Origin: a virus
DNA: 64,000 nt
Strand: one strand, 5' to 3'
Virus record (IMG/VR): IMGVR_UViG_3300034418_007243
Coordinates: 45,875 to 109,874 of that record
Shown: one piece after another, positions 3,180-36,182 of the stretch
How positions within the stretch are numbered: the first letter of the stretch is position 1
Layout of the letters: each line of letters opens with the position of its first letter
Notes under the pieces: generated by a model
What the model was told of the DNA's origin: nothing
What the model saw: the letters and a program-made list of their open reading frames with translations, nothing else
Databases searched by the model: none
Translations under genes and position numbers: made by a program

Positions 3180-3193
3180 TAATTTCGTATATT

Positions 3194-6319: not shown

Positions 6320-6329
6320 AACATTAATA

Positions 6330-9221: not shown

Positions 9222-9247
9222 ATATATGAGGTTTGGTAAACTTATAT

Positions 9248-9255
9248 TATTTTTG
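9248..9255 (+). promoter_or_regulatory. Candidate Bacteroidota sigma70 -7 box (TAnnTTTG)
   Basis: tatttttg in the 52-nt intergenic gap, 18 nt before the ATG at 9274. Confidence 0.4.
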
Positions 9256-9273
9256 AATAATAAGATATAAGAT

Positions 9274-12200: not shown

Positions 12201-12585
12201 AAATCAACTTAGAGATGAAGGTATAACAATGTATGTACCCAAAGCAGAAGCTAATAATATATTTACTACTAATGCTGAAAGAACTAGTTTAGATATATTA
12301 ATGGATTATAATAATGAAGTAACTATTGATGCTTCTCCTAGATATACAAAAGGTCTTAGAGTAACTAGAGGACCTAATGGTTATTATACTGAAGGTTTAG
12401 CTGCTCAAGGAATAAATCCTGATGGTTCTTTTGACTGGGTAGCTTTTCAAAAAGATTACGGAAATAATGTAGACTTAACAAGTGCTTTTGCTGATGCAAA
12501 TAAGTTAGCTGTTGATATTGATAAAGTAATGCAACTTCAAGAGAAACAGTGGAATCTTGCAAATGGTATAAAAGAAACAAGATAA
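9274..12585 (+). CDS. Putative ejected (cargo) protein with Gly/Ala-rich transmembrane hairpin
   Basis: 1103 aa, mostly helical. Hydrophobic stretch AAIPAAAGWLSGTAAAAVSAAGGTAAATGPFGWGAAAVAFLAANGLY. Lies directly upstream of the giant RNAP cluster. Confidence 0.6.
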   Translation: MATYINGVTDYIPQIQPFRPDFNFYTQAMRFKQSKHDAARRQLSDLYGSLLNAPMTREDNIAARDKFFKTIKEDINKLSGMDLSLEANVQQGQMLFNQLTDNTNIVKDMVWTKHFQNQMAKGKALKDCADPEKCGGSWWEGGDSYMAYKMQEFKNASAEDAMKMGMVDYVSQQDVMGKAMKLAKDAGLSITMDQLQGGYITTTKNGPLLQGPLSNLFTGTLAKDGKILEYYKAKAYVDRKNFGMANADKYGSVEAAESFYIQQNADMLEKLYNTQTQTTKDDAATNKKIKEEVLNDVNKNGANPKSTVWSELEQMDLEEKGYESSSKVYENAGNETALAKRNLSGRALDGAMAAYYLGNDINKAAQTLAMKDYEFKMEADKYSLEAVQQRNRLLLEDVKQKNRLDMEKFKFDNERYLKQMELMGPAALNTPSETIVNGSTTGSLTWNEDGYMGYDKLEAGANQFSEDYQKMQNDLSAPEKGILSMAYKATESAASLGNTQAKSDYVAMTMDYLAAQGAADPQSGLDIKSVGVDQESQDPSREMVSARRQEFNNTLAKIQSAKSLDEKFAIAKKAGVDINSLSGFDADQMYMNTVEKFSADNAQGENIRRPYMRQVNQMAIANKENIKAKREYLAKMDSAYANLALGVINKVKAGKGGYSQEMIDAMEAYIDTETGHAKSYEEFEKAYMAKGYTREQAQAIYRQDEEYDYSTSGAGSYAKSIGRNIYEAAEGAAIPAAAGWLSGTAAAAVSAAGGTAAATGPFGWGAAAVAFLAANGLYNLWEATLGDGDYGLIGFDFKGPGYYEGNRGGYGATPETGGVGKGNPGLLDAWKRAFSAQADPPGDYGWMNIHGLGQRSTKAINYQIVDPKYTGAASTIGTLGMMKDVLRSTNAKVTMGGFGQEIPEEVDAEALKILGIAMTDMSTNTKGASRLTPNVTYSHIAGGNDDWVAMNIKFNDAFSNRFKGNEDNPGPTRGLQNQLRDEGITMYVPKAEANNIFTTNAERTSLDILMDYNNEVTIDASPRYTKGLRVTRGPNGYYTEGLAAQGINPDGSFDWVAFQKDYGNNVDLTSAFADANKLAVDIDKVMQLQEKQWNLANGIKETR

Positions 12586-12588
12586 ACT

Positions 12589-15500
12589 ATGGCTAACGGA
12601 GATCCTACACAAGACATGTCAATAACACCACCTGGCTTAAGTGAAGGTCCTGTGGATTTAAGTGCTGGTGTACCCATGAATACACTACCACAAAATTTAG
12701 AAGCCCCTAGAGTTGAAGATTATTACCCTGATAGATTTAAACAAGATCCTATTGCATCATTGCCTCCAACTCCAGAAAAGGTAAATGCTTTAATTGATAA
12801 TTTTGTTTATAATACAGAAGCTAAAGAAAATCCTTTAAAAGCTACTAGTGTTTTAGGAAACTTTCATACTTCTGATTATGGACAAAATCAATTTATGGAT
12901 AGATACTATAACCATAATAAATTTAGTGAGTTAGGTTTTAGTCCTTTTTTAGATAATGAAACTAGATATAATGAAGCTTCTTCTGGTTGGGATGAATTTG
13001 AAAGAGCTTTTGGGCAATGGACAAATTTATCAGGAGTAGCTTTTTCTGATGCTATGTCTTTTGGTGATTCTTTAACTGACAGAAAAAATGCAGAGCAGTT
13101 TAAAAGAGTAATGGATATAGGAAGTAGTACAGATACTGGAAAGTTTGCTACTAATTTATTTTTAAACTCTGGTTATACAATGGGTATAATGGCAGAGCTT
13201 ATTGCTGAAGAAGTTGTGTTAGGTGCAACAACTGCAGCTTTAGGTATTTCTTCCCCTATTACAGGTGGTGCAACTGCAGGTGCTGCTGCTGTAACAGCTG
13301 CTACTATGGCAGAAAGAGCAAGAAGAGGTTTTGGTAAAATTACACATGCTTGGGATGCTATGAAAAACGTAGGTAAAACTTTATCAAGTTTTAAAGATGT
13401 TAATAAAGCAAGAGAATATTTTACTTCAGCAGGAAAAGCTACAGGAAGATTCCTTAATCCACTAGAAAATACAGCAAGATTTCTAAAACAAAAAAAATCA
13501 ATAGCTGGTATTCATGAAGGAACAAAGCTTGCTAAACTAAAAACAGCTACTAGCGGTTTTGCAGAATTTTATAAAGATGTAAGAAATGTTAGATTAGCCT
13601 TTGGTGAAGGAGCTTTAGAAGGAGGTATGGTTGAAAATGAAATGATTGATCATTTAACTAAAGACTGGTTAGATAAACATCCTGGTCAAAAGATGAGTGA
13701 TTCTGCTGCTCAAGCTATAAGAAATGCTGCTAGAGATGCTGGTGTAACAACTACTCTTACTAACACACCTGTTATACTTCTAAGTAACAAAATTGTACTA
13801 GACGGTATTTTAAGACCTGGCCAATTTAGCAAAAAAATTATAGGTGAGGTAATAGAAACAGGAGGAAAGAAACTGTTATTTAATCCACGAAAAGGTGTAA
13901 AAGATGTTTATTCTATTTTACCTAAAGGGTTTATAAATAAAACATGGGCTTACGCAAAAGATCCTAGATTAGCTTTAAGCGCTGCAGCTACAGGAGTTAT
14001 AAAATATTCTTCTGCTAACTTTGCTGAAGGTCTTCAAGAAACAGCTCAAGAAATTATATCTGGTACTAATGAAGATTACTATACTGCTCAATATAAAGGT
14101 GATGTAACTAAAGGTGGATATTATTCTTTTGTTGCACAAAATGTTAATAAACAATTCTCTCCTGAAGGATTTGAGATATTTGCTTCAGGATTTTTAATGG
14201 GTGGTATAGCAGGTCCTATATCTAATATTGCTGGTAGAACTATGTCTACAGCTACAGAGTTATTTGATCCTAATAGTGATTTAAGAATTAGAGGTTTTAA
14301 AATTGGAGAAAAAGAAGATGGTACAGGTAAGTATATTACAGGTGGATTTTTAGGTAAAGCTTTAGGTATTGGTACTGGTACACAAGAACAAATATCTGCT
14401 GCTGAAAAATTAGATAGAAAAAGAAAAGATGCTTTAGATGATGTAGTAAATACTTTAAATGAGTTTTATGACATTAATAAAAAACAATATCTAAATCCAG
14501 AGTTAGAAAATTTATTATCTCAAAAACAACTTAATTCTTTGATGCAAAAAGCACAAGAAGAAGGAGATGTTAAAGCATATAATGATTTTAAGGACACATC
14601 AGGATTTAAGCATGTAATAACTGCTTTAAAATATGGTAGATTAGGTACACACATACAGCAGTTAAAAGAACTAAAGAATTTAACAGAAGAAGAAATAAAA
14701 CAGCAATACGGAATATCAAAAACTAAATTTGATGCAAGTATAGATAATGCTGTAGAAAGAGCTGAAAGAATACAATATAGATATGATAAAGCTAAAGAGC
14801 TATTTCCTAATCCTTATAACCCACAAAATTATAGAGGTAACGAAGCATTTCTTATGCTTATAGGAGAAAAAGCTTGGAATGATGCTGTAGAAGAATTTAT
14901 CTTTAATCAAGATAGTTTTGATAATGCTGTTAAAAGAACAGAAAAAATACTAAGTAAAGCTAAAGATAAAGCTAAACTTAAAAATACATCCTTTTCAAAA
15001 TTTGAAGCTTTGTTTTCTTTAAGTAAAACACAAGCAGAAATTAATACTCTAAAACAAGAAATAGAAGCTTTAGAAGAAAGCGGTGTAAAAAAGACAGATC
15101 CTAAATTAAGATCACTTAAAAAACAAAAAGAATATTTAGAAAGGTTTGCTGATGCAATGGAGCAAACAAAAATAGAAAGAGCAGAAAGTAAAACAGAATC
15201 TATTACTCCAAAAACTAAAAAGAAAGCTGAAAGAGCTTTTAAACTTTACGTGAATTTGTTAGCTGTAGAAAGTGGTGACTTTGTTGCTAATGAAGATTTA
15301 ACAGATGTATTTGAAGACTTATTAGATTATGCAGCCTTAAGTGAAAGAAAACAAAAAGCAATGGATGCTGCTAATCTTTTAACAAACCCTCAAGCATTTT
15401 TTGAAAGAGTTGAAAGAAATAAAGAAATTAATTCTAAAATTTTTGCTAATAAAAAAGCTGAAATAAAAGAATCTCTTGAGCAGTATTTGAAAGCAATGGA

Positions 15501-17679
15501 TAAAAATGAAATGCTTCAAGAGCTGCATAAATTAGGAATGTTCTTTTCTTTAGAAGAGCTAGAAAATTTAGAACAACAAATGAAAGATGGTGTTCTTACT
15601 TTAGAAAGCTTTCCTAAAACATTTTATTATACAAATGTAGATACTGTAGAAGATGAAAAGCTTTCAAGTCTTCAAGTACAAAGAAATACAGAGGACTATC
15701 AAAAAGCTATTGCGCTAGTTAAAAAATATTTTCCTCACATAACTGGAATTCCTATAGAGCAAGAAACTATAGTTGATCCTTACTCAGCTTCAGTAAGATT
15801 AAAGCTTAAAGATGATAATAGAACTTTTGAAGATTTAGCAAAACAATTTGGTTTTGAAAATAAAGAAAAGGTTCCTTTAAAAGATGTTTTACAAGCTATT
15901 ATAGATAGCAAATATGCAACAGCTCAAGAAAAACTTTTAGCTTCTCAATTATTAACATTAGCTAGTGATACAGAAACAATTACTTTTGCTACTAATATGG
16001 CTATGCCGGGTGAATATTCTGAAAGTTTACAAACTAGAATAGATCCTAGATATTCAGCAAGTAATTATGCTAAATCAAAGAAAAAATTAAGAACAGAAGA
16101 TTTTGGTGTTTTTGAATATGAAGGAGCAGATTTACCTATAGAAGTTACCATTCTAAGATATGAATTAGAAAGAAGAGTTTTTGAATCTTTAAATACTAAT
16201 ACACAGTTTTCTGAAAATATTAATGAGTTAATGAAACTTGCTGACGCTAGGTTTACAGAAATGGCTAACGCTGATGTAAATAGTGTAAATTTTGCAATAT
16301 TTCCTTTCTTACAAGATAAAGCTGCTTTTATACAAGGAGCAATGACTAGCAGAGATTTTCAAAAATTTTTAGCATCTATTCCTTATAAAAGCACAAAAGA
16401 ACAAAAAAATAGTTGGCAAAAGTTTGTTGACTTTGTTATAGATTCAATTAAACAAACGCTAGGTGGAAAGCCCAATGGTTCTGCTCTTAATGAAGCTCTT
16501 ACTCTTATTACATCTGAGATAGGTATTATAGAAGAAGAAAAAGCTGCTCCTGTTACAGGAGAAACAAAAGCAGAAGAAGCAGTTATTATAGAAGGTCCTA
16601 TTTCTATTACAAATAATCCAAAGAGCATGTGGTCTGAGCATAAAGAATTTATGACTCAGATGGTTAATTTATTTAAACAACAGAGTAAAGAACAAGAAGC
16701 TAAAGGAGAAACACCGCTTGGTAGATTTACAGATAAAAATGGAAATAATTTATCAGATTATGCAATCTTAACAACTACTCAATTTAAAACCTGGTGGAAT
16801 AAAAACTTTAATGCTGCTAAAGATGAGGCTATAAATAACTATAATACTCAATTAAAAGAAGCAGTAGAATTAGAAGAACTTGAAAGTAAACAACAAGAAG
16901 AACCTACTCCTAAATCAGAGCAAAGAAAAAGTAGAAAGGATGATATTAAGACTAGGGAGATGGTAAACAAACTATTAGGATTACGGTTTACAAGACCTCA
17001 GATTGCAGCCATGAGTGTTGATGATGCTATTAAATTTATAGAAGATAACATTCCTTACCCTGAACTAGTAAAAAGAAGAGAAGAAAAAGAAAGATTAGAA
17101 GAATTAAAAGCTAAACAGAAAAAACAAGAAGCTGTACAAAACATTATTGATAAATTTAATAGTGTTACAAGCTTAGATGAATTAACATCAGTGTATGATA
17201 CAATTTTAAATGCTATTGAAGAAAATGATAAAAACATTGTTGAAGCACAAAAAGATGTAAATATAGAACAATTACGTTTAGAAACTCTAAAAAGATTGGC
17301 TGAAGAAGTAAGCTTTGATCAATTAAAAATTGGTAAAGCAATGCGTCTTAAAAAGAATAAAAATGCTTATATTATAGAGGTAAGTGAAGATGGTAAAACA
17401 TATACTGCTCAATATGATGATGGCACTTCCAATACTGTAGAAATTACAGAAGACAATATAAAAGATTTAGTTCAAGCATTTTATAGTGAAGCTTATGAAC
17501 AGACAAATGAAGTTGAATCAGAAATTACTGAAGATGAAGAAAAAGTTTTATCTGAATCTAAAGAAATATTTGATAATTCATCTGAAGGTATAAAAGAAGC
17601 TATGGATTCTGCTAAGAAGCTTGGCAAAGAACAAGCTAGAAAAAACTTTTTAGACGCAATAAATAATAGATGTAAATAA
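12589..17679 (+). CDS. Giant ejected protein 1, with membrane-inserting Gly/Ala segments and a degenerate zincin-like domain
   Basis: 1696 aa. VVLGATTAALGISSPITGGATAGAAAVTAA and EGLQETAQE...FASGFLMGGIAG. The TAA overlaps the next ATG (TAATG). Confidence 0.65.
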   Translation: MANGDPTQDMSITPPGLSEGPVDLSAGVPMNTLPQNLEAPRVEDYYPDRFKQDPIASLPPTPEKVNALIDNFVYNTEAKENPLKATSVLGNFHTSDYGQNQFMDRYYNHNKFSELGFSPFLDNETRYNEASSGWDEFERAFGQWTNLSGVAFSDAMSFGDSLTDRKNAEQFKRVMDIGSSTDTGKFATNLFLNSGYTMGIMAELIAEEVVLGATTAALGISSPITGGATAGAAAVTAATMAERARRGFGKITHAWDAMKNVGKTLSSFKDVNKAREYFTSAGKATGRFLNPLENTARFLKQKKSIAGIHEGTKLAKLKTATSGFAEFYKDVRNVRLAFGEGALEGGMVENEMIDHLTKDWLDKHPGQKMSDSAAQAIRNAARDAGVTTTLTNTPVILLSNKIVLDGILRPGQFSKKIIGEVIETGGKKLLFNPRKGVKDVYSILPKGFINKTWAYAKDPRLALSAAATGVIKYSSANFAEGLQETAQEIISGTNEDYYTAQYKGDVTKGGYYSFVAQNVNKQFSPEGFEIFASGFLMGGIAGPISNIAGRTMSTATELFDPNSDLRIRGFKIGEKEDGTGKYITGGFLGKALGIGTGTQEQISAAEKLDRKRKDALDDVVNTLNEFYDINKKQYLNPELENLLSQKQLNSLMQKAQEEGDVKAYNDFKDTSGFKHVITALKYGRLGTHIQQLKELKNLTEEEIKQQYGISKTKFDASIDNAVERAERIQYRYDKAKELFPNPYNPQNYRGNEAFLMLIGEKAWNDAVEEFIFNQDSFDNAVKRTEKILSKAKDKAKLKNTSFSKFEALFSLSKTQAEINTLKQEIEALEESGVKKTDPKLRSLKKQKEYLERFADAMEQTKIERAESKTESITPKTKKKAERAFKLYVNLLAVESGDFVANEDLTDVFEDLLDYAALSERKQKAMDAANLLTNPQAFFERVERNKEINSKIFANKKAEIKESLEQYLKAMDKNEMLQELHKLGMFFSLEELENLEQQMKDGVLTLESFPKTFYYTNVDTVEDEKLSSLQVQRNTEDYQKAIALVKKYFPHITGIPIEQETIVDPYSASVRLKLKDDNRTFEDLAKQFGFENKEKVPLKDVLQAIIDSKYATAQEKLLASQLLTLASDTETITFATNMAMPGEYSESLQTRIDPRYSASNYAKSKKKLRTEDFGVFEYEGADLPIEVTILRYELERRVFESLNTNTQFSENINELMKLADARFTEMANADVNSVNFAIFPFLQDKAAFIQGAMTSRDFQKFLASIPYKSTKEQKNSWQKFVDFVIDSIKQTLGGKPNGSALNEALTLITSEIGIIEEEKAAPVTGETKAEEAVIIEGPISITNNPKSMWSEHKEFMTQMVNLFKQQSKEQEAKGETPLGRFTDKNGNNLSDYAILTTTQFKTWWNKNFNAAKDEAINNYNTQLKEAVELEELESKQQEEPTPKSEQRKSRKDDIKTREMVNKLLGLRFTRPQIAAMSVDDAIKFIEDNIPYPELVKRREEKERLEELKAKQKKQEAVQNIIDKFNSVTSLDELTSVYDTILNAIEENDKNIVEAQKDVNIEQLRLETLKRLAEEVSFDQLKIGKAMRLKKNKNAYIIEVSEDGKTYTAQYDDGTSNTVEITEDNIKDLVQAFYSEAYEQTNEVESEITEDEEKVLSESKEIFDNSSEGIKEAMDSAKKLGKEQARKNFLDAINNRCK

Positions 17680-20600
17680 TGAGATGTCCACTTAATCCAG
17701 ATATAGATTTACAAGCATTTAGAGTAGCTGTATTTGCAGATATGTATGATATGGCAGAAAGCCCTGAAGCTTTTGATGTTGATCAATACATGCAAGAAAT
17801 GTATGAATTAGTTTTTGAAAACACTAAAGATCCTGCATTAGCTCTAGATTATGCGCGTTTTATACCTGAAACTACTCTTAGTCTTTTAAATACAGATAAA
17901 AAACTTAGTGGCAAATTAATGAATGAGAAAGGTTTAAACCTAAATTCTCTAATGCAAAAAGTTATTGATATAAGTAACTATAATAAAGATCAATTAAAAG
18001 TTCTTAATAATCAGTTAGCTGGTAAAGTATCTTTAAAAGATACAGCAAAAAAAGGAAAAGAAGTTGCAAAGCGTAAAAACCAAGAAAAGAAAAATGAAAA
18101 TCAGTTATCACTATTTGATCCTGAAATAATAGAAGAAGCAGCTAAAGAAGAACCTTTACCTACATTAACACCTTCTTTGTCACCAACACTTGTTGAGGAA
18201 GCAAAAGGTATATTAGATGCACAAGGTTCTGATGAAATGATTTATCCTCTTACAGCTTTTGCAACAAGAAATGTTGATAGACCAACAAAACATTCAAAGT
18301 TTATATCTGCTGTTCAAAAACAATTGCTAAGATTATTTAAAGAAAATAAAACAAATAATATTTTTTTAGCAGCTGTACCTACTAGTGAAATTATAGCAAA
18401 TCTTGAAAATAAAGATAGTGTTTACTATAATTTTTTCAGAAGTATGGATGCTGCAGAACAACAAAGTTTTATAGAAAATGATAATGGTTTAGGTGTTATA
18501 TTAGTTGTAACAGATCAAGCAGGTCTACCTATAACATTTAATGATCAAGGATTGCAGTCTAAAGAAGACTTATCTTCCCCAGCTTTTCTATTTTTAAATA
18601 GTCCAAAGTTTGATACTAAAGGACAAATTAAACTTAGTGAAAATGATATTGCAGCAATTGAAGAAATAAAACAAGTTTACAAAAAACATAATCAACCAGA
18701 GCTTGCAAAAAAAGCTGAACAGTTTTATATAGAACAGCTTAAGTCTATTAATAAAATTAGAGAATATGTTAGAGCTAACCCTAAAGAATCTGTTAAGTTT
18801 ACAATTAACGGAGGATTTTTAGGAGCTTATCAAAAGTCTTCTATAAAAAATAAACAACCTCTTGCTGGTTTAGAAGAGACTATAAATTTACAAAGAGGAA
18901 AGTATAATAGCATGTATTTTACTTCATCAGATTTGGGAGGTAAAACTATAGTGCTTGAAAGACCTACTTTGTCTGAGGCTGATATGTTAGAAGATATACT
19001 TAGTCTTTTAGTGGATGATATAACTTTAAATGGTAAACCTATATCTTCTACTGAGCGTAAGAATTTATTCTTCCAATTTTATTATAGCAAAAAAGAAACA
19101 GTTCAGCTTGCATCAGAAAATGGAAAAGCTGTTTTGTATTTTAAATATAAAGCTATTCAACTTGATCAATTAAATGATCAACAAAAACAAACTTTAAAAG
19201 AAGAACTTAGAAATTATTTTACAGAAATAAATGATAAAGGTTATCCTGAACAACATACTTATTTAAAAAGTTCTCCGCAAAGTGCAAATAAACAAATTAG
19301 TGATATCAGTATTGAAAACGGAGTTCTTACATTAACTAATAAACCCTATGAACAGTTTGTTAAAGAAAAGTTTTATAGCCTATATAAAGTAGAAAATGGA
19401 AGATTTGCTACATCAAATCCATATATCACATTTGAATTAGCACCTGAAAGTGAAGGTCAAGTTTTTTTAGAAAATAAAAAAACACAAGAAGAATTAATAA
19501 ATGAATTATTAACTGTTGCAGAAGAAATTGAAGAAATTCAAAATAGAATAGATGAACGTCTTTCTATAAAAAAAGATACTCAAAAATCAAGCATTAAAGA
19601 ACAAGGAAAGTTGTTTAGAATTTTTGAAAAAGCTTTTTATGAAGGAAATAATAAAAGACATAATGATATATCTAATGAACAACTTCAACAACTATCTCCA
19701 GAAACAAAAGCTTATTTAATAGACTTATATGAAAGAGCAAAACCTTTTAATGAAGAATATCAAAGAATAGGTAAAGTAAGAGATGTTCAAACCAACAAAG
19801 AAATAATAACAGATGAAGATAAAATAAGATATATAACAGCAAATCATTTTGGTGGTTTTGGTAGAGCTGCTAGGTTAGGTTCTGCTGCTGATTATGTGTT
19901 TAGGCAAGACCCTAAGTATAAAGATTTAATCTTTGCTATTCCATCTCAAGATGTTTTAAATAATATAAATAAGGTTTTCAATGCGAAGCTTACAAGTGAA
20001 GAGTTAAATATTGGCAGTGTAAAAGAAGAACAAGTAAAAGAAGAACCTAAAAAACCAACTCCTTCTTATTCATCAAGATTAGCAGATTTTGACACAAAGT
20101 TAGATAAAACACTTAAAGTAAAAGGTTTAGATGTAAAAGCAACAAAACAACAAATAAAAGAAGCTAAAAAGTGGTATGAAAAAAGTGCTATAAGTCAATT
20201 TTTTAAGTTTGAAGAAATTTTTGATATGGTTAATACTGATGATGGTTCAGCTGTAGCAAGATGGACATTAGCAGGTATTACACTTTACAAAGGTTCTGAT
20301 TACTCTGATTTATATCATGAGGCTTGGCATGCTTTTACACAGACATTCATGAATTCTTTACAAAGACAAGAATTATATGAAAAATTAAAAACTAAATCAG
20401 GAACTTTTACAGACCATCTTGGTCAAACAGTAACGTTTAAAGATGCTAGTGATTTACAATTAGAAGAACATCTTGCAGAACAGTTTAGAGAGTATATGCT
20501 GAATCCTTCTAGTAAGAAAATTACTAAAGAAGAAAAGTCTTTATTTAGAAGAGTTTTACAAGCTCTTAGAAAATTATTTGGTGATAGAGAACTTGATTTA

Positions 20601-29600: not shown

Positions 29601-30275
29601 ACTACAGTAAATAATATAGATACAGCTATGTTAGAAAATACTGTAAAAACACCAGCTGAAAGCAAAGCAACTGAAGGTAAATATCAACCTGCAAAAGATG
29701 TATTTGATATTGATAGCGCTCTTGTAATAGAAGGAATAGAGCAAAATCCTGATGTTATTTTTGTTTATGAAGGAGCAGAAACAGAAGGTCTTGGAACTGG
29801 TCAAGGTGAAGGTGCAAAACATAAAAAAATAAAAAATGTTAGCACAAACAATGTATTACCTCTTACAGTGAATAGAAATTATGCTCTTCAAAATACTTTT
29901 AAAGATGTTAAAGATGAAGCTGGTAATATGGTTATAGATCCTAAACTTAAAGAACTAATAGATAATGATATACAAACACTATTAGCTTATGGTGATAGAC
30001 CTATCAGATTTAGTAGTAAAGGTTATGGTAAAGAGTTAATTAAACAAGATAAAAAAAGAAATACTCCTATGCCTGCACCACAAGCTTTTATATATTTGTC
30101 AGAGCAATTACTAGAAAAATTTGGTTATATTAATCCTGGCTTTTTAAGTTTAGATATGTCTGGAAATAAACCAGGTATTGAAGCAGTACAAGAAGCTCAA
30201 GAAATATCTGATGCAGAAATAAAAGAATTGAATAGAGAAGCTGTATTAGATTTAATTAAACTGTGTAAATCATAA
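17679..30275 (+). CDS. Virion RNA polymerase polyprotein (crAss/phi14:2 gp66-like two-barrel RNAP) with N-terminal zincin and C-terminal macro-like, unknown and AlkB-like domains
   Basis: 4198 aa. RIPVQGLNS (24729) and KSGADFDIDKL (DFDID at 24846-24860). Also DFHKRNAG, ADGQG, HKFSLYP and STQLRKL. HEAWH (20316) with EEHLAE. HQD...H...RxxLTxR in the AlkB part. Confidence 0.9.
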   Translation: MRCPLNPDIDLQAFRVAVFADMYDMAESPEAFDVDQYMQEMYELVFENTKDPALALDYARFIPETTLSLLNTDKKLSGKLMNEKGLNLNSLMQKVIDISNYNKDQLKVLNNQLAGKVSLKDTAKKGKEVAKRKNQEKKNENQLSLFDPEIIEEAAKEEPLPTLTPSLSPTLVEEAKGILDAQGSDEMIYPLTAFATRNVDRPTKHSKFISAVQKQLLRLFKENKTNNIFLAAVPTSEIIANLENKDSVYYNFFRSMDAAEQQSFIENDNGLGVILVVTDQAGLPITFNDQGLQSKEDLSSPAFLFLNSPKFDTKGQIKLSENDIAAIEEIKQVYKKHNQPELAKKAEQFYIEQLKSINKIREYVRANPKESVKFTINGGFLGAYQKSSIKNKQPLAGLEETINLQRGKYNSMYFTSSDLGGKTIVLERPTLSEADMLEDILSLLVDDITLNGKPISSTERKNLFFQFYYSKKETVQLASENGKAVLYFKYKAIQLDQLNDQQKQTLKEELRNYFTEINDKGYPEQHTYLKSSPQSANKQISDISIENGVLTLTNKPYEQFVKEKFYSLYKVENGRFATSNPYITFELAPESEGQVFLENKKTQEELINELLTVAEEIEEIQNRIDERLSIKKDTQKSSIKEQGKLFRIFEKAFYEGNNKRHNDISNEQLQQLSPETKAYLIDLYERAKPFNEEYQRIGKVRDVQTNKEIITDEDKIRYITANHFGGFGRAARLGSAADYVFRQDPKYKDLIFAIPSQDVLNNINKVFNAKLTSEELNIGSVKEEQVKEEPKKPTPSYSSRLADFDTKLDKTLKVKGLDVKATKQQIKEAKKWYEKSAISQFFKFEEIFDMVNTDDGSAVARWTLAGITLYKGSDYSDLYHEAWHAFTQTFMNSLQRQELYEKLKTKSGTFTDHLGQTVTFKDASDLQLEEHLAEQFREYMLNPSSKKITKEEKSLFRRVLQALRKLFGDRELDLEITNLEADLFVQDIFEKLRIGKLYEYTFDIENFAFPSLDKGGVKALQGSTGVQQLNYNNTMKMVGVIDSLISEWIDLKNAALNRDQIDALFDINDEIDKAGENIKRIEELEKQKEELLTLARQQIKATYKYTSAVTKDPNALLAAYNHAAYRIARIISNKQALYAATENIVEKEKLKKQLDLLEWSLKNFGNLENIKHVTNRPGENSRGLISMHIERSATFFNQDVKVSLDFENVTEEQLLQGKLFEKTGNDLSMVEIAKPEVIFFLKQLYSYNKEGLVERDDFGLPKQADFGQTWNKLARLLVNTPNIDQMYLKLQAASVKDPQIKQLLSKLGRTNTDSNLTQSLISNFFNTFGMANVPLIQTTIRKVTKQNPDGTTSTQTIASTGRAFNSNNKIAKDWERQFKEPSHKSKYIKRDEKGSYLDVDAFLNDYNYAKAKGNLWQFYNDLGILLSDNEDLKTELQDPNNKKLYSDKVSFIFTTLKKNYQEKNKRLADLNELAKSESVIYNNLINLESKYSNVFTDFMVTNAEGNAQFEHTLNNTITMMVNGINNVENYLDILAIPHLAHLNVDLNPFAESSMWLKSMFNLEGTADTNPKYGERRKDTYGNDIKLEVVNLSGIITLEGEEKTQEGIASARADEFTKFILDMHLGYDNSFELMRHADKSTSYGIRLTGETLGSKSRRDSYLSPQTFKKDNVQVAFDIKNRIVPYLIAELKRMRIARTALKDNIKDFDFAYLERGKDFVIFSGYLSADTQALLEKEIVKNESLALEDFAEAISNDIFEKEILKDTRSYFNKQYVKVDKLFKATDEFISDNIVKNFIGKSNITKDEAKKAILQSQIVNSFINNLESMSFIYGDIAQYKLDKEDFHKRNAGAGSTGKLFRTDKGMQDFINGRINQTYAAKLKNELGLASLRTYDGTFNTAVISDNKIPSVYAELRQLGEAYNEMEEADGQGIIAFDSYRTLKIAEGSWLPEQEALYQDIINEREIDETKIQYYFPAYKTQYWGPLKTDLERIGLPVTAFHKFSLYPAIPNVIKGKNMEILHKRMIQEGIDYVVFKSGSKVGTVTETQSGTKQVYKKDSRELVFDNNYDPSKDKPFFTKNVIFLEYLKNQLEINDKAKGQTIFSTQLRKLVIDGLMEFGVPVDYKTNIKDPEKRIKAWENEKNKEDSSPYYKLIRNYEQTIEALTKLEKDKLLKELNWTENEDGTLSGDKKKLIDFVVRELSRKELGEHELEYLLKGGDLSLSLNAADVEKMLNAIVVKKLVKQKVNGEALIQVANTFMEDAVKAKGLKFKNPTKKQIEEFGSNDLPFYTKNKDGSTNAMKVKVALQNDFKNLLFLKHNDGQEIGSIERLNEMIKDEEWLNKGDHRKMITMTAVRIPVQGLNSMEFMEVYEFLPASASGTIILPSEIVAKSGADFDIDKLTVMMPNIKAKVTKENKDKIFWKELAQEFPDLDFSYNNVQMIFDALKSPETYKFLNEEDIAVANAIKSKANVVTAEYSTGDNKSGLENKLLESIVSILSLPVNREALLTPNSTALFTEGKNEGDKSLVDALAKDEEYNGTTTFEIAYNLKKHQENSIGKAALGLGAVDNTYNTLMNRVGAYLNKEVGSTEEEFIQSIFGKIPESEQKYYQAVRKNFRRQKIFLPHNTIDGNISLSHSTSKGSNQSISGVINQMINGWVDVARGAWIFNVQGNKEVAPTLLFMIQAGVPVDTAVYFVSNPLVKEYVNQIRKAQSPFAEYMNMDLENPNAFKAAALRNIFTNPEFGFRLPYKMNGVFQKETDMSNINPMLNQMNISRLARVLAVQNVNKQFNTETLKERAENYKEGDPITEADRDAFLHFLELEEMGKGVRDIKMNMNFDTNPDQSLYAAEARIKRKGSLEYDNRFPSFIIEKLENESPISAFYTQPFQIKLIGGLFPLRNHKRINKFIDDVELDEIKRNGWNDRESFAKDFKNEFINFIYQNELRNFDVRKLSKPTTNTFNGFEIERVNVASLKHGAAFKDGKLFISMTDLARQYASITKKYNDLPISETLAAKLQKDYQQTGLAPISPLQFRNFEEYVEFVIERERLRSVLSTEKINNNLQYQFLLEEIKDYYENNTYGKAKIANYSPEVKERFIVNYAKETFLKNKALQNIYNNDYMFKNTGQNLFQKSYADRFLDLNNLRFPQLKNEFLLLNYLEYVESPTGYRNLKLSNPKLTADQKNVFFENLEDLTDEKTLKEKFPSLEDNEIKYIIDFFNEFSLYAYLQTGLNTKSSFNLSSIVDPEEFTIIAEEAKAKALNILNSESIYSEELLQDFYRVFNRTNGNKGRAVKGRGVNYKIQGTIFTEKGLEYLKITPKTKSFVEDVELIETQPIVQSTRKTYSGKVTSLQPNQIFVFGSNPLGINGNPAKGTGGGALVAYQIAGVKQGEKMDNKLSDSGKAWGITTVTAPGKKKSKTPQQIIEGIKKLYEYANNNPRIEVLVADYSGPRNLNGYTGQEMADMFSNAGPIPSNIVFNENFDKLIATQPTVQSVTTPKNRFTVKPKQAADKKAKVKAKIATQYIGFAEGIFGSSTALYAEQIGQYANTGNYSSDDVIFVSIPGKRGSAELQKQNQDRTIKEAIKAVEAGATIITDNKAYIDSSSYNTGEKRLFANMQEKGYTYSEVTVDGQILGTWSKPTQPQDSNPNIVKNSNGLIVIKDQLNNEEGAAMVESFKPVIEETSFKQTGGSVSWGFGLQWMRVNSMSTEQRKGLIIGKQLNGKEITQEMKDKFINGADAQQLGMPLYGYTSIDKNGNPLPNIPTEIITMLAQKGIDISEYDASYNSVYDKKDGGSLIIHQDNTELNESPIITISLGRPMKFITYELNDPNDFNITDPKNTAYNIVKNVISGQALKNKIIDKPFKYGELTPGNIMDYAKQLDKIEGGDKYSQQVLDALKAQFKGKATTTEYTLENGAILVFSGNNRNVLHEIVFDEASDKKPMPEGFPELTVTKNRYDKKTDSFLPVQVKTDNYRVVLTLRKVQGTTVNNIDTAMLENTVKTPAESKATEGKYQPAKDVFDIDSALVIEGIEQNPDVIFVYEGAETEGLGTGQGEGAKHKKIKNVSTNNVLPLTVNRNYALQNTFKDVKDEAGNMVIDPKLKELIDNDIQTLLAYGDRPIRFSSKGYGKELIKQDKKRNTPMPAPQAFIYLSEQLLEKFGYINPGFLSLDMSGNKPGIEAVQEAQEISDAEIKELNREAVLDLIKLCKS

Positions 30276-30281
30276 AATGTT

Positions 30282-33200
30282 ATGCCTACTTGTCCTAATA
30301 TAAATAGTCCTGAATGGAAAGCTTTAGTAAATAATCCTAACATAGGTACATTTCAAGCTTATAAAGATTTTTTTGAAAGTGGCACAATTAGAAGTGAGCA
30401 AGAAATACTGGACAAACTTGAACAAAGAGAAATGACTCCTATTAACCGTGGTATTAGTGAGCCTAATACACAAGAGTTATATGAAGAGTATGGAATGAAG
30501 TTTGAATTAAGTTTAAATATTGATTCTATAAAACAAGATAGAGCTACTGAATTTGCTGATAGATTAAGTAATGCTTTAGGTATAGATTATGAAATGATCA
30601 CTGCTTCAGAAGCTCAAGAGATTACTAAAGATGCTCAAAACCCTTGGTCTGGACAATCTGCATTTTTCTTTGGTGATAAGGTTTATTTTATCAATAATAG
30701 AATGACTACAGATCTTGTGTTTCATGAGTTTGCACACCCTTTAGTAAGAAGTTTAGCTAAACAAAACAGAAAACTTTTTGAAAACTTATTTAACCAGGTA
30801 CAACAGAGTAAAGAAGGACAAGATATAATTAATAGTGTTTTAGAAAAATATACTGAACTAGATCCAAATTCTGATTTATTTAAAGAAGAAGTAATTGTAC
30901 AAGCCCTTGAAAAAAGTTATAAAGATAAATCTGCAAACATTAAAAGTAGTAGCCCTTTTACAAAAGCTATTAAAAACTTGCTTTATGCAATTAAGCAAGC
31001 TATACGTCAAGTTTTTGGTAAAAGCCTCCCCGTTTCTAAACTTTCTGCTGAGACTACTCTTAATGAGCTTGCTAATATGTTAGAGCAAGGTGAAAAGTTT
31101 TCATTAGAAAAACAATTGATTACTAATGAAGATATTGTTGCTTATAATAAAGAAATGATAAATACTCTAACTAAAGAGTTGCAGTCAGTTGAAAAACAAG
31201 ATATACAAGCAAGCATTAACTCGTTTTATGACAAGTTAAATATTCAAATTGAAATGCTCAAAAAGAATAAAAATCTTGATGAGTTAGCTAGAATAATTTT
31301 ATATACTACAGGTAATGAGAATATCTTTGATATGAAGAGAGATCTTCAAGCTTATCAAAGTAAAGTTGTTAGAGAAACTGAAAAACTTCAAGATGAAATA
31401 GCTGAGTATAGAACTAGAGTCAAAGCTTTAGCTAATAGTATGTATACATTAGAAGTGGTTTTATCTAAAATGAAAAACCATATTAAAGATCTTGAAAAAA
31501 ATGCTGAGACTAGAGAAGCAATGCATAAAGCTCATTACTATGATAAAATTATTAATTATTGGGATGGGTTTATACAAGAAATAGAAAAAACATTATCTGA
31601 TGCTAATGTTCCTAATGATGCTAAGATAGTGTCATTAGTAAATTCTATTAGAAGAAGTATCCGTACATCTAAAGATGGTATTAATAAAATGATGGAAGAA
31701 GGTGCTATAGATGGTCTATGGCAACAATTAGCACCTATGAATAAAGATATTGGAGAAAGGTATGAAAGAATAATAGCAGAGCTAAAAAGAAAAAAGGCAC
31801 CCCGAGAAAAAATAAATAGAATCTTTAAAGAGTATCACGGTATGACTGAAGAGCAGTATAACCGTTTTAAAGAATTATCTAATAAGAAAGCAAAAGACGG
31901 ACTTTCAGTTAAAGAAGATCAAGAGTTAGCAACACTACAAGGTTTATCTAAATCTGGTTTATCTATAAGTAAAGAAAAGATTAGAGGATTAATAAAAGGA
32001 GAAATAGGGGACGCAAATTATTTTAATAGTTACTTGGAAGGTTATTTGTATAATACAGACCCGATTATTGGAGGTTTGGCGTTGTACACAAAGAATGCGT
32101 TGAATGAAGTGATGATAGTAACACAATCAAAGATGAACACATTTGCTGAAGAGCTTAGACCTTTGTTAGAAGCTGCAGGATATAATCCAACTAATAAAGG
32201 TAAGCTTGGTGAAGATGTTGGTTTCTTAGATACTGTTGCAAGATTTAATCCTGAGACAGGTGTTATGGAAGAGAAAAAGGTTTGGACATTCTTGAATCCT
32301 TTTAAGAATTATAGATATGATGAAGACCGTTTAGAGCGTAATCTTGCTGATGCTTATGATAATTGGATTATAAATAATACTGATGCAGCTAAGAAAGAAT
32401 ATCTTGATGCTAAAGCAGAACTAAGAGAGTTTAAGACTACATATATGAATCAGGAATATACTTCTGATTTTTATGCTAGAAAAGAAAGATTGCAGAAGAC
32501 AGCTGTAGGAAGAGAGGTTCTTGCTTATTTAGAAGATTTTTTCCAAAGATTGCGTGAAGTTACAGAACCTAATAATACTGAGATAGATAAATTAGATTCT
32601 TATGATATAGTACAAGCATTATGGAGAGAGTATAGACAAGCTCATTCTATGTATGATTTAAATGGTAAATTAAAATCAAATAAACCTGATCCTGTTACTG
32701 GTATATCTCCATTAGCTTTAGCTAAAGAAATGCGTCAATACAGAGAAGAAGGTAGAGATTTTTATGAATGGAAAGTAAGAACTAATGCTTTTGAAACTGC
32801 TTATAGAGATTATCAACAAGAACTTCTTGCTGAAGGTGTTGGTGAAAATCATCCTGATTATAAAGCAAGAATGGATTTGTGGAAACAACGTAATACTAGA
32901 GTTGTTATCAAGCAGGAATGGTATGAAGAGAAACGTAGAATATTAGCTGAAATAAAACAAATATTAGATAAGTTAAATTTGCCTGAGAATGAAAGAGCTA
33001 AAATAGATCAAGGTATTGTTTGGGAAAAAATTCTTGAGCTTACAGGTCTTTACAGAGATCAAGATGGTCAAATACAAGGACAGGAATTATCTGAAGGTAG
33101 TATACAAGAAGTAAAAGCTTTACAAGAGGAACTTGAAAGAATTAAAAACACTTCTGTAGGAAATAATGGTTTAACAAAAATAGAAAATGAAAGACTTAGT

Positions 33201-36182
33201 GATTTATTCAATATAAGAAAAGAAAGAGATTTTACTGCTGAAGAATTTAAAGAGTATAAGAAGTATATATCTAAAAAAAATATAGCTAGAGGAAAATTAT
33301 CAGGTACAGATAGATCTAACTTAATTAGATTATATAAACAGTTAGGTGAGCTTACATCTAGAAGTGCAACAGAATATTATGTTGATATAATGAATAATTG
33401 GCTGTCTAAATTAAATACAAATCCTTTATATCTAGAAACTGAAAGCCGTACTATTGAAACTCATAATGCTGACGTTATACTTCAAGATTATTTGATTAAT
33501 CCTTTATTAGCAGAAAATGAAGAATTCAAAAAATGGTTTGAAGCTAATCATATAAGAAAAGAAAAATGGAATGCTGAAGAAGGAGAGATGCAAGAAGTAT
33601 GGGAAAGAATATATGCTTGGAATGTAACAGAGCCTTCTGACCCTTCAATGTATGAAACATACACAATAAGAGATAGTGTAGGTAATGTTATTGATACTAT
33701 GAATGGTATGCCTACTATGAACTATTATTACAGAGCAGTAAAAAATAAATATAAGACAAGTAAAGTACAAGGAGTTACTATTGATAACAGAGGACGGTGG
33801 TTGCCTAAGTCTAGAGAAGAAATGGCTAAATCAGATGTTGCGGATAAGTATAAGTATATTAATGAAGAGTACTATGAACTGCAACAAAACAAACCTGAGT
33901 TATTTGCATTACTAGAAAAACTAAAAGAACACCATCTTAAAAATCAAGAAGGTCTTGGAAGATATTCCAAATTATATTTGGATATGCCACGTTTTCAAAA
34001 AGACAATTTAGAAGGTTTACAAAGTACAAGTTTAAATGATGCTAAGAAAAAAGGCTATACAGGTTTAACTTGGTTAGCTAAAAGAATTAGAGGCTTTTTT
34101 AAACGTGAAGCAGATGATGCTGATCAAGGTTTCAATGAGAATCTAAATTTTAATTTAGTACGTGTAGATATGTTTGATAATGAAATTACAAACATTCCTA
34201 TAGCTGGTTTATATAATTTAGATTATGATGATGTTTCTACAGATATTACATATACTATGATGAGGTATATGTTTTCTGCAGAACGTCAAAAACAGTTGAT
34301 TAACATCTCACCTTTTGTAAGGTCTGTGCAAAAAACTGTAAAGGATAACCCTATTATTGATACTAAAAAAATAGATAAGGATAATTTCTTAAATAGAAAT
34401 ATTATAAAGTATATTCCTAAAGGAGATAAGGTTAGAGAAAAAGCAATAGACAATTTTATTTCTAGAGAGTTTGAAGGACAGAACAAAGCAGGTGTTGCAG
34501 CTGATAGTGTCTTTCTAAATAACTTTTCTAATCTATTATTTAAGAGAGCATCATTTGCTTTCTTTGCATTAAACATACCATCAGCTTTAAAGAACTCTTT
34601 AGGTATGAAGTTTCAACATATGATTGAAGCTGCAGGTGGTGAATATGTAGATATACCTAGTTTGGGTAAAGGAAAAATGTGGGCGTATAGAGTTATGGCT
34701 GAATACTCTGGTAAAATGCTATACCAAAAAAGAGGAGCTTTAACATTAGATCATCAAATTGTAGAAATCTTTGATCCTATACAAGATAGATTTGCAGAGA
34801 AGTTTGGTGAAAGATTATCTAGAACTGTAGCATCTGACGCAGCAGGTTTAAGTTGGTTATATAGCATACGTAAATGGGTAGAAGCACAAGCAGCTATGGA
34901 ACTGTTTGCCGGTATGGCTTACAAGCAAAAAATAAATAGACGAGTTAATGGTGAAGTACAAGAAATAAGTTACTTAGATGCTTGGGAACTAAACAACGAT
35001 AAACAGATAACATTAAAGTCTGGTATTGATGTAAGATATGGTAAAAAACCTACACTACATAAATTAAAAGCAGGTGATACTTTGCAATCACTATCTGAGA
35101 AATATAATGTCCCTCTTGAAGAGCTTGAAGATATTTTAGGCAAGCAAAACTTCCAAGAAAAAATACTTGAAGCAGAAAGTTATGAAGCAGATAGACAACA
35201 AGAACTAGATGATATAACTCCATTAACTGAGGATTCTGATTTACTTGAAAGAGAAAAGTATCAAAATGCTGTAGATTTTATTAATAAAAAATATGATCAA
35301 AAAGTAGAAGATACACTTACTATTAAAATAGATAATACTTTATTTAAGTTATTTAAGAATAGACAACAGCAGGTGCAGAATGATATGGGTGGTGCGTATG
35401 CTAAATTTGATCAACCAGAAATGCAAAGATATTTATGGTTTAGATTTGTTTCTTATATGAGAAAGTATTTTACTACTATGGCTCTTAAGAGATGGGGATT
35501 TTCTGGACGTTTATTTAATCCAAGAGCAAGACTTAATCCTGGATTAGGTGAAGCACAAATGGGTTATTATATTGAAACTGGTAGAACTCTTATTAATATA
35601 ATGAGAACAGGCGGTAAAGAATTAGCATATTTAACATCTTCAGAAAAAGCAGCATTAATGCGTTTTGGTACAGAGGTTGTTATGCTTTGGCTTACAATGA
35701 TGGCCTTTGGATTATTTGGCTGGGATCCTGAAGATGAAGATAGAATTGCTAAACTTAGAGCTAAGACAGGAGCATTACCTTTTCCTTTTTCAGAAACAGA
35801 TCCTAAAAGACCCTTTAATCTTAAAGGTTACTTAGATGTACATGCGTTACACTTACTAATGCAAGTAAGAGCAGAAAATGAACAGTTTAATTTATTGACT
35901 GGAGGTGTGCAACAGTATGCGTCATTAACAGATATTAAGTCTGTAGCATTTGGACCTACTATGGATTCATATACGCAAATATACAATGACTTAATGAACA
36001 TTATGACAGGTAGTTCTAAAGCTCAGTATACAAGAAGAATTGGACCTTATGAATGGCAACAAAAAGGAGGATCTAAATTACTTGCACACTTAGCAACAAC
36101 TGTAGGCCTTACAGGTAGTACTGTAGATCCTGTTAAAGCTGTTCAAGGTTTCCAAGCATTCCAGGCTAAAGTTAAGAGATAA
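30282..36182 (+). CDS. Giant ejected protein 3 with N-terminal zincin metallopeptidase, LysM-like insert and C-terminal hydrophobic helix
   Basis: 1966 aa. VFHEFAHP (30723) with downstream EEVIVQAL. LHKLKAGDTLQSLSEKYNVPLEEL (LysM-like). VVMLWLTMMAFGLFGW. Confidence 0.7.
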   Translation: MPTCPNINSPEWKALVNNPNIGTFQAYKDFFESGTIRSEQEILDKLEQREMTPINRGISEPNTQELYEEYGMKFELSLNIDSIKQDRATEFADRLSNALGIDYEMITASEAQEITKDAQNPWSGQSAFFFGDKVYFINNRMTTDLVFHEFAHPLVRSLAKQNRKLFENLFNQVQQSKEGQDIINSVLEKYTELDPNSDLFKEEVIVQALEKSYKDKSANIKSSSPFTKAIKNLLYAIKQAIRQVFGKSLPVSKLSAETTLNELANMLEQGEKFSLEKQLITNEDIVAYNKEMINTLTKELQSVEKQDIQASINSFYDKLNIQIEMLKKNKNLDELARIILYTTGNENIFDMKRDLQAYQSKVVRETEKLQDEIAEYRTRVKALANSMYTLEVVLSKMKNHIKDLEKNAETREAMHKAHYYDKIINYWDGFIQEIEKTLSDANVPNDAKIVSLVNSIRRSIRTSKDGINKMMEEGAIDGLWQQLAPMNKDIGERYERIIAELKRKKAPREKINRIFKEYHGMTEEQYNRFKELSNKKAKDGLSVKEDQELATLQGLSKSGLSISKEKIRGLIKGEIGDANYFNSYLEGYLYNTDPIIGGLALYTKNALNEVMIVTQSKMNTFAEELRPLLEAAGYNPTNKGKLGEDVGFLDTVARFNPETGVMEEKKVWTFLNPFKNYRYDEDRLERNLADAYDNWIINNTDAAKKEYLDAKAELREFKTTYMNQEYTSDFYARKERLQKTAVGREVLAYLEDFFQRLREVTEPNNTEIDKLDSYDIVQALWREYRQAHSMYDLNGKLKSNKPDPVTGISPLALAKEMRQYREEGRDFYEWKVRTNAFETAYRDYQQELLAEGVGENHPDYKARMDLWKQRNTRVVIKQEWYEEKRRILAEIKQILDKLNLPENERAKIDQGIVWEKILELTGLYRDQDGQIQGQELSEGSIQEVKALQEELERIKNTSVGNNGLTKIENERLSDLFNIRKERDFTAEEFKEYKKYISKKNIARGKLSGTDRSNLIRLYKQLGELTSRSATEYYVDIMNNWLSKLNTNPLYLETESRTIETHNADVILQDYLINPLLAENEEFKKWFEANHIRKEKWNAEEGEMQEVWERIYAWNVTEPSDPSMYETYTIRDSVGNVIDTMNGMPTMNYYYRAVKNKYKTSKVQGVTIDNRGRWLPKSREEMAKSDVADKYKYINEEYYELQQNKPELFALLEKLKEHHLKNQEGLGRYSKLYLDMPRFQKDNLEGLQSTSLNDAKKKGYTGLTWLAKRIRGFFKREADDADQGFNENLNFNLVRVDMFDNEITNIPIAGLYNLDYDDVSTDITYTMMRYMFSAERQKQLINISPFVRSVQKTVKDNPIIDTKKIDKDNFLNRNIIKYIPKGDKVREKAIDNFISREFEGQNKAGVAADSVFLNNFSNLLFKRASFAFFALNIPSALKNSLGMKFQHMIEAAGGEYVDIPSLGKGKMWAYRVMAEYSGKMLYQKRGALTLDHQIVEIFDPIQDRFAEKFGERLSRTVASDAAGLSWLYSIRKWVEAQAAMELFAGMAYKQKINRRVNGEVQEISYLDAWELNNDKQITLKSGIDVRYGKKPTLHKLKAGDTLQSLSEKYNVPLEELEDILGKQNFQEKILEAESYEADRQQELDDITPLTEDSDLLEREKYQNAVDFINKKYDQKVEDTLTIKIDNTLFKLFKNRQQQVQNDMGGAYAKFDQPEMQRYLWFRFVSYMRKYFTTMALKRWGFSGRLFNPRARLNPGLGEAQMGYYIETGRTLINIMRTGGKELAYLTSSEKAALMRFGTEVVMLWLTMMAFGLFGWDPEDEDRIAKLRAKTGALPFPFSETDPKRPFNLKGYLDVHALHLLMQVRAENEQFNLLTGGVQQYASLTDIKSVAFGPTMDSYTQIYNDLMNIMTGSSKAQYTRRIGPYEWQQKGGSKLLAHLATTVGLTGSTVDPVKAVQGFQAFQAKVKR

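Follow-up and report, generated by a model that had tools for sequence, protein, structure and literature searches.

In a 64,000-nucleotide stretch of the IMG/VR virus record IMGVR_UViG_3300034418_007243 (positions 45,875 to 109,874 of that record; hereafter the window), three adjacent plus-strand genes, here called A, B and C, encoded proteins of 1696, 4198 and 1966 amino acids (aa), the second of which is an RNA polymerase (RNAP) protein. Together these 7860 aa contained exactly four cysteines (Cys), each close to one of the termini that face each other in gene order. Comparison with relatives makes it very probable that the terminal Cys are paired elements of head-to-tail junctions, and by the same sequence comparisons they mark breaks in the polypeptide. 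As to what the pairs do, we consider it moderately likely that reversible disulfide tethers would join A, B and C for ejection into the host as a "virtual polyprotein".

Four cysteines at the facing ends of three giant proteins

Judged from its sequence, A-B-C is the cargo/RNAP trio, presumably packaged in the virion, of a crAss-like (Crassvirales-type) phage, a distant uncultured relative, and its members have counterparts in the Crassvirales phages phi14:2 and crAss001. The genes and their Cys codons were as follows.

12589-17679, plus strand: gene A, 1696 aa, 191 kDa; first link; positional counterpart of phi14:2 gp67 and crAss001 gp47
17671-17673, plus strand: codon of Cys1695 of A, the second-to-last residue (NNRCK, then stop)
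17679-30275, plus strand: gene B, 4198 aa, 477 kDa; middle link; multidomain virion RNA polymerase protein
17685-17687, plus strand: codon of Cys3 of B (MRCPLN), invariant in the 50-sequence alignment A2
30264-30266, plus strand: codon of Cys4196 of B, the third-to-last residue (IKLCKS, then stop)
30282-36182, plus strand: gene C, 1966 aa, 228 kDa; last link; counterpart of phi14:2 gp65 and crAss001 gp49
30291-30293, plus strand: codon of Cys4 of C (MPTCPNIN), invariant in alignments A1 (70 sequences) and A3 (43 sequences)

The summed mass of the three proteins was 896 kDa. Genes A and B overlapped as TAATG and a gap of 6 nucleotides (nt) separated B from C, while the outer chain ends, the N-terminus of A and the C-terminus of C, had no Cys, the latter being basic. 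A sequence-only reading of the window had found the four Cys by eye and had allowed that many internal ones might have been overlooked; a computed count over the three translated open reading frames (ORFs) bore it out, with no Cys elsewhere in the 7860 aa, and its codon positions, end sequences, TAATG overlap and 6-nt gap were all right on re-reading. If four Cys were placed at random, the probability that all would fall no more than 4 residues from the four facing termini is ~2e-11. Cys made up 1.40% of residues in the minus-strand genes of the window and 0.27% in the four giant plus-strand ORFs upstream of the trio, and the absence of any internal Cys in ~7820 aa has a probability of ~6e-10 at the lower of these backgrounds and ~2e-48 at the higher. 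The four-Cys layout is real, and chance is excluded. The N-terminal motif M-x-C-P-x-N that had been read as common to B and C held in this phage and did not extend to its relatives, in which the N-terminus of B mostly read M-x-C-[SA]-L.

A caveat to the layout is found two genes upstream of A, where ORF 6330-9221 (963 aa) had one Cys, residue 955, nine residues from the C-terminus (KCRVLRLPNK). A partner Cys was absent from the start of the next ORF, orthologs in relatives had no Cys, and this was the sole unpaired near-terminal Cys seen.

Paired cysteines at gene junctions among relatives

Homolog searches spanning 5.8 billion proteins returned large families for A, B and C. All 30 homologs of A (23-98% identity, 1424-2472 aa) had exactly one Cys, located 1-3 residues from the C-terminus, and none was internal in 58,642 aa. 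Cys no more than 8 residues from both ends were present in 109 of the 120 homologs of B listed (31-95% identity, 2598-5278 aa), with 17 internal Cys in 449,938 aa (~0.004%); the 11 exceptions, most of them truncated in comparison with B, fell short at the N-terminus in ten cases and at the C-terminus in one. For C, 116 of 120 homologs had a Cys between residues 2 and 8 and lacked any close to the C-terminus, and the N-terminal Cys was also present in a further 135 cluster representatives of the family. The terminal Cys were thus kept across all three families, which was the check that the sequence-only reading had proposed.

Cultured phages had the same arrangement. The sole Cys of phi14:2 gp67 was residue 1797, its last, while gp66 had only Cys 3 and 2179 of 2180 residues and gp65 only Cys 3. 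For crAss001, gp47 had only Cys 2339 of 2341 residues, gp50 had Cys 5, 1334 and 2404 of 2412, and gp49 only Cys 5; the layout of cr85_1 was like that of crAss001. Gut crassviruses tolerated more internal Cys, as in IAS gp56, which had 10 Cys in all. The proteins gp67, gp66 and gp65 of phi14:2 and their crAss001 counterparts have been detected in virions by mass spectrometry, fused forms of these cargo proteins occur in some phages, and the cargo must exit through the tail partly unfolded (bioRxiv 10.1101/2020.03.07.982082; PMC10172136). Neither the phi14:2 preprint (10.1101/2020.03.07.982082) nor the crAss001 atlas (PMC10172136) mentions Cys in, or links between, the cargo proteins.

We evaluated the pairing of terminal Cys in 79 IMG/VR loci comprising B plus 10-kb flanks, in which consecutive plus-strand ORFs of at least 250 aa were compared and a junction Cys was scored if it lay no more than 10 residues from the terminus. 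Among 188 distinct junctions, Cys occurred on both sides in 126, on neither side in 62 and on one side only in 0; the Cys-less junctions were those among the upstream tail/cargo genes. At the paired junctions the N-terminal Cys was residue 3 (69 junctions), 4 (39), 5 (17) or 6 (1), and the C-terminal Cys was mostly between the last and fifth-last residue, with offsets that ranged from 1 to 10. An N-terminal Cys at residue 2 was seen in a few homologs only, outside the 126 paired junctions. The 42 distinct complete trios (321,994 aa) contained 168 terminal and 14 internal Cys. Polarity was uniform in more than 100 genomes, where the first protein never had an N-terminal Cys and the last never a C-terminal one. 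Apparent exceptions in loci L030, L040 and L136 were frameshifts or an in-frame stop and not true boundaries, and false breaks had no Cys on either side: these were the in-frame stop in a conserved stretch of L136 and the broken C gene of L040, which was intact in the near-identical L043. Head-to-tail pairing in A-RNAP-C, the core of what had been proposed from the window, is strongly supported by this both-or-neither pattern at 188 of 188 junctions and by the splits and fusions described below.

The stop in L136 (L136:13049-13124) was situated within conserved B, with homology continuing in frame, and annotated genes of cr52_1 (L142) also contained in-frame stops. Reassignment of a stop codon could account for both, or a sequencing error for the one in L136.

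Several loci carried additional breaks in the module. In L105 the order was A, B1, B2, C, with Cys at residue 3 and the second-to-last residue of B1 (602 aa) and at residue 4 and the third-to-last residue of B2 (2440 aa). In L057, C was cut into pieces of 739 aa and 1858 aa with a Cys pair at the break. Three other loci had the order A, B, X, C, in which X was an extra protein with Cys at both ends.

L071:19203-20927: X of 574 aa, between B and C
L114:18439-20703: X of 754 aa, between B and C
L110:17604-18362: X of 252 aa, between B and C

Every internal chain piece at these new splits had Cys at both ends. The X proteins had no detectable similarity to the window trio and, by the Cys rule, would be extra injected cargo; that of L071 combined a C-type N-terminus (MNCININSPEF) with a B-type C-terminus.

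Fusions had the opposite effect. In Suoliviridae, A and B are fused in cr118_1 gp14 (4946 aa), cr10_1 gp32 (4460 aa) and cr52_1 gp34 (4464 aa), and in these proteins the N-terminus had no Cys, no two Cys were fewer than 16 residues apart, and the C-terminal Cys was kept. The genes that follow, in the two cases seen (cr118_1 gp15 and cr52_1 gp35), encoded proteins beginning M-x(1-4)-C-P-N. As the Cys of the A C-terminus and B N-terminus were lost together, and those of the B C-terminus and C N-terminus retained together, only the pairing of A C-terminus with B N-terminus and of B C-terminus with C N-terminus fits. The expectation that the pair would be lost where genes are fused was therefore supported from both directions, since it was gone at the Suoliviridae fusion sites and gained at new splits. 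In this module, as these comparisons show, a pair of Cys can take the place of a peptide bond. A search with the read-through B-C sequence against 1.84 billion representatives found no natural B-C fusion in the best 150 of 565 matches, nearly all of which were C homologs beginning with the Cys.

The A/B break itself has also moved. In an iterative profile search via the fused proteins, residues 700-1050 of B matched residues 2008-2212 of crAss001 gp47 (E 3e-25), so that the domain at ~740-950 of B sits after the A/B break here and before it in crAss001. As the break is non-homologous between the lineages, the Cys pair tracks the break and not a domain.

Proposed chemistry of the link and its alternatives

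The simplest chemistry for such a link would be an inter-chain disulfide, for which structural work offers a direct precedent. In cyanopodophage A4 (Anabaena phage A-4L), cryo-electron microscopy (cryo-EM) found the ejection proteins gp27 and gp26 joined in the virion by a Cys1715-Cys5 disulfide (PMC12002296, PNAS 2025), and the C-terminal helix of gp27 inserts into a cleft of gp26, where it is fixed by the disulfide (PMC12002296). In the A-4L genome, Cys 1715 was the only Cys of gp27 (1717 aa) and Cys 5 the only one of gp26 (1114 aa), and the two genes were adjacent with a 5-nt gap. The sequence-only reading knew of no description of this kind and could not check the literature; a terminal Cys-Cys disulfide between two ejection proteins had in fact been published (PMC12002296).

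By analogy with A4, Cys1695 of A would be paired with Cys3 of B, and Cys4196 of B with Cys4 of C, as disulfides in the virion. The trio would then act as one pseudo-continuous N-to-C chain of 7860 residues with uniform polarity, which would make it the equivalent of the proteins that are really fused in other crassviruses and of the virion RNA polymerase (vRNAP) of phage N4, a single chain. Because the links lie no more than ~5 residues from the termini and there are no internal Cys, the product could only be a linear, unbranched thread. We postulate that this thread would move through portal and tail in a partly unfolded state, each protein drawing in the next, and that reduction of the links in the host cytoplasm would free the individual proteins. 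We infer the threading, the order of ejection and the reductive release, and the disulfide chemistry itself by analogy with A4. Single-thread feeding of this kind fits the partial-unfolding, N-to-C ejection model that has been proposed for crAss001 cargo, and crAss001 virions hold disulfides in the tail barrel and gp57 (PMC10172136).

Several points weigh against disulfide tethers. Disulfides form poorly in a reducing cytoplasm, the site of virion assembly, so that their formation would have to await lysis. In the gut, crassviruses retain the terminal Cys in surroundings without oxygen, an observation for which a metal bridge or another kind of thiol link would account equally well. No thiol oxidase was found by Pfam among 10 Cys-rich window ORFs tested. 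Little sequence that could direct each Cys to its correct partner was conserved around the newly evolved pairs. In the crAss001 map the cargo stayed unresolved (PMC10172136), and a disulfide joining these proteins is not known from any crassvirus. When the read-through of the B C-terminus and C N-terminus (table 6) was folded as a 512-aa chain with 13 in-frame relatives, a shallow alignment, the model had a mean predicted local distance difference test score (pLDDT) of 63 and a predicted template modelling score (pTM) of 0.36, with no confident inter-domain packing, and it weighs neither for nor against the tethers.

The main rival is a metal-bridged or cysteine-switch link, which keeps the same junction pairing and dispenses with the disulfide. 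Here the terminal Cys would share a metal ion (Zn or Fe), or would serve as a cysteine-switch ligand of the HExxH sites (C 148, B 880), which would hold the termini together and keep the peptidase latent until ejection. Both B and C carried an HExxH domain.

20316-20330, plus strand: HEAWH, the zincin-like HExxH motif of B (H880-H884), with H880, E881 and H884 invariant in relatives
30723-30737, plus strand: HEFAH, the zincin-like metallopeptidase motif of C (H148-H152), with H148, E149 and H152 invariant

The glutamates E929/E930 near the HEAWH of B were also invariant (domain ~residues 740-1000). An AlphaFold2 model of residues 1-270 of C had a pLDDT of 87, and the part spanning residues ~79-250 resembled the anthrax-LF/PPEP zincin fold with a middling score (Z 7.7), in agreement with a published description of a zincin-like protease domain in gp65 orthologs (bioRxiv 10.1101/2020.03.07.982082). 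We regard a metal or switch link as unlikely, even though the invariant HExxH of C follows Cys4 by 144 residues and B has one too, the first zincin-like domain of crAss001 lies ~130 residues before the A/B break, and the N-terminal 10 residues of C, also modelled at pLDDT 87, belong to a fold. A metal link could moreover form in a reducing cytoplasm and in the anoxic gut. Against it, the new-split pairs in L105, L110, L114 and L057 were unrelated to HExxH domains, no conserved His, Asp or second Cys stood beside the terminal Cys to complete a site, and the only solved example of the layout, in phage A4, is a disulfide. A switch of the matrix metalloproteinase (MMP) type would also leave unexplained the Cys of A, the C-terminal Cys of B and the new-split pairs.

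Less likely still are disulfides formed without head-to-tail order, such as A-A or C-C pairs, rings of B, mixed concatemers or a bond between the C-termini of A and B, which would bundle the cargo or retain it in the capsid. Partner specificity is not evident in the barely conserved sequence around new pairs, each crAss001 capsid is estimated to hold every cargo protein in several copies (PMC10172136), and terminal-only Cys would give linear products whichever partner was taken. Random pairing does not, however, require the strict polarity of chain ends seen in more than 100 genomes, nor would it explain why A-B fusions drop just the Cys of the A C-terminus and B N-terminus while those of the B C-terminus and C N-terminus stay. 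The A4 bond, too, runs from the C-terminus of one protein to the N-terminus of that encoded by the adjacent gene, the helix sitting in a cleft, and X of L071 keeps the plug-and-socket types of end, a C-type N-terminus and a B-type C-terminus.

It is very improbable that each terminal Cys has a function of its own, whether in attaching to portal, capsid or DNA, as a site of lipidation, or as a catalytic or redox-sensing thiol. The both-or-neither pattern was perfect at 188 junctions, pairs were gained and lost together with splits and fusions while the outer ends had no Cys, and the proteins had neither a lipobox or signal peptide nor a fixed CaaX spacing (offset 1-10).

Finally, the Cys pattern might be a by-product of nucleotide signals (translational coupling, recoding or read-through), of gene-calling errors or of chance, as the TAATG overlap of A and B and the B/C junction could suggest, but the comparative data already refute this. 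At 30273-30281 of the window, B and C were in the same frame and separated by TAA plus two codons. They were in frame in 13 of 42 relatives and the other frames were equally common, so that the in-frame junction is incidental here and read-through is no conserved feature. Relative frames of the paired genes were 0, 1 and 2 in 33, 36 and 57 cases, and gaps ranged from -13 to +154 nt, the Cys offsets varying as well. In crAss001 and cr85_1, gene A was on the opposite strand to B-C and all four terminal Cys were kept, which, together with the varied frames, shows that the pattern is no nucleotide or recoding artefact. Chance alone has a probability of ~1e-11 in this window, and artefactual breaks had no Cys.

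Other ways of joining or modifying the ends were considered and rejected. A split intein or trans-splicing was discarded as Pfam found no intein domain and Cys 1-5 residues from the ends leave no room for fragments. Joining of the native-chemical-ligation type was discarded as the N-terminal Cys of the 126 paired junctions was at residues 3-6 and not 1-2. CaaX prenylation or a lipoprotein signal was discarded as the C-terminal offset was variable (1-10) and no lipobox or signal peptide was found.

Returning to disulfide tethers, it is conceivable, though short of probable, that thiol-stapled virtual polyproteins are a general principle in tailed phages, whose tail-injected proteins would be concatenated head-to-tail by single terminal disulfides. 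Genes could then split, fuse or gain modules anywhere provided that each break received a pair, and reduction in the host cytoplasm would be the trigger for release. Since the same layout was present in Crassvirales and, without sequence similarity, in A4, convergence or a very old rule is suggested.

Domains, neighbouring genes and comparison with known systems

The remaining features of the trio and the annotated genes downstream of it were as follows.

23106-25802, plus strand: RNAP-homologous region of B (~residues 1810-2700), matching phi14:2 gp66 and crAss001 gp50 in tblastn and blastp
24846-24860, plus strand: catalytic DFDID motif of B (D2390-D2394), invariant in 50 relatives
28881-29588, plus strand: AlkB-like 2OG-Fe(II) oxygenase domain of B (residues 3735-3970; PF13532, E 3.7e-8, above the curated cut-off)
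29556-30272, plus strand: conserved C-terminal domain of B (~residues 3960-4198), ending in a predicted amphipathic helix with Cys4196
36267-37004, minus strand: glucosaminidase-type lysin (PF01832)
37285-37587, minus strand: MazG-like pyrophosphohydrolase
37630-38463, minus strand: spore-photoproduct-lyase-like radical SAM protein (PF20903, E 6e-14)

In a low-confidence model, helix was predicted up to Cys4196 of B. At the position of the AlkB-like domain, relatives of B bore other modules (SF1 helicase domains, PF25176 or PF08719), and the C-terminal part of B resembles a slot for interchangeable cargo. C matched crAss001 gp49 in blastp. A weak LysM-like stretch at residues 1593-1615 of C (35058-35126; PF01476, E 0.015, below cut-off), together with precomputed LysM matches in several C homologs, hints that the last link may bind peptidoglycan. 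Searches of B against the Protein Data Bank (PDB) by sequence, of A, C and the upstream ORFs against PHROGs, and for related loci with the C-terminal 499 aa of A gave no match, and megablast of the window against phage records found no close phage record.

Four giant plus-strand ORFs (297-12585) preceded A, and the trio closed this structural block; the coding strand switched after C, at ~36.2 kb, to an oppositely oriented replication block with a minus-strand DNA polymerase. The ORF immediately upstream of A (9274-12585, 1103 aa) had no PHROG or Pfam match, and its only Cys were residues 128 and 134, which were kept in most relatives starting MATYI.G.TDYI. The two residues of this conserved C-x5-C probably pair within the chain or form a metal site.

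Crassviruses, among which are the most abundant viruses of the human gut, deliver ~1 MDa of protein through their tails, an RNAP among it. A Cys pair at each break offers a concrete and cheaply testable mechanism for ordered cargo ejection and for a 1:1:1 stoichiometry, and the rule would account for the varying number of genes, from one to four, that encode the module in different lineages. It would also serve in annotation, as an otherwise Cys-free protein with Cys at both termini would be an internal chain link, which flags cargo of unassigned family. The rule connects an isolated cryo-EM observation in A4 to more than 100 related genomes examined. If disulfide tethers are the right reading, a redox step, release by host reduction, is added to the infection cycle, and if the principle is general, the Cys pair would be an evolutionary substitute for a peptide bond.

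Two elements of this picture are already known: Cys depletion of ejected proteins, in N4 and DEV, and one terminal disulfide, in A4. The crassvirus rule, under which every break has a pair, chains run to three or four links, and pairs come and go with splits and fusions, was not found in the literature searched. A4 gp27-gp26 resembles A/B and B/C in that the sole Cys of the upstream protein is at its C-terminus and that of the downstream protein at about residue 3-5, in adjacent genes. It differs in having a single link, which joins two members of a T7-like core stack, neither of which has an RNAP, and the A4 paper treats the bond as a local stabiliser and not as a general rule, a chain of at least three links or a peptide-bond surrogate (PMC12002296). 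A jackhmmer comparison of A4 gp26-gp29 with all collected A, B and C homologs gave no match, so that the layout shared by A4 and crassviruses either arose by convergence or has an origin too remote to follow.

Depletion of Cys has been described for the ejected proteins of N4-like phages (PMC11445570), and the Schitoviridae (N4 gp50 vRNAP, DEV gp71-gp73) share with the trio giant injected RNAP-bearing proteins in which Cys are almost totally suppressed throughout the family (PMC11445570, PMC13434306). N4 gp50 also has an HExxH domain after its RNAP, so that its layout of N-terminal domain, RNAP, HExxH and C-terminal domain parallels A-B-C. However, N4 gp50 consists of one chain that lacks terminal Cys, whereas the trio keeps them, and the published account for N4-like phages, avoidance of periplasmic disulfides, covers the depletion but not conserved terminal pairs. 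According to the literature, the RNAP fold is T7-like in N4 and two-barrel in crassviruses.

Within the Crassvirales, phi14:2 gp67-66-65 and crAss001 gp47-50-49 are like the window trio in the RNAP homology of B with its DFDxD motif, the zincin-like C and the same gene order, which in phi14:2 was g067-g066-g065 followed by a strand switch. The terminal-Cys rule is obeyed exactly by phi14:2 and nearly so by crAss001, in which C1334 of gp50 is extra. In contrast to these relatives, B of the window is twice as long (4198 aa), carries extra modules including the AlkB-like domain, and has its A/B break elsewhere.

Translocated AB toxins offer a more distant parallel. In clostridial neurotoxins (light and heavy chain) and diphtheria toxin (A and B), a single disulfide tethers cargo that passes unfolded through a narrow channel, and cytosolic reduction releases it. 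These toxins are unrelated, their disulfide links fragments of one nicked precursor and not termini, and they form no multi-link chain, but the logic is the same as that proposed here for A, B and C.

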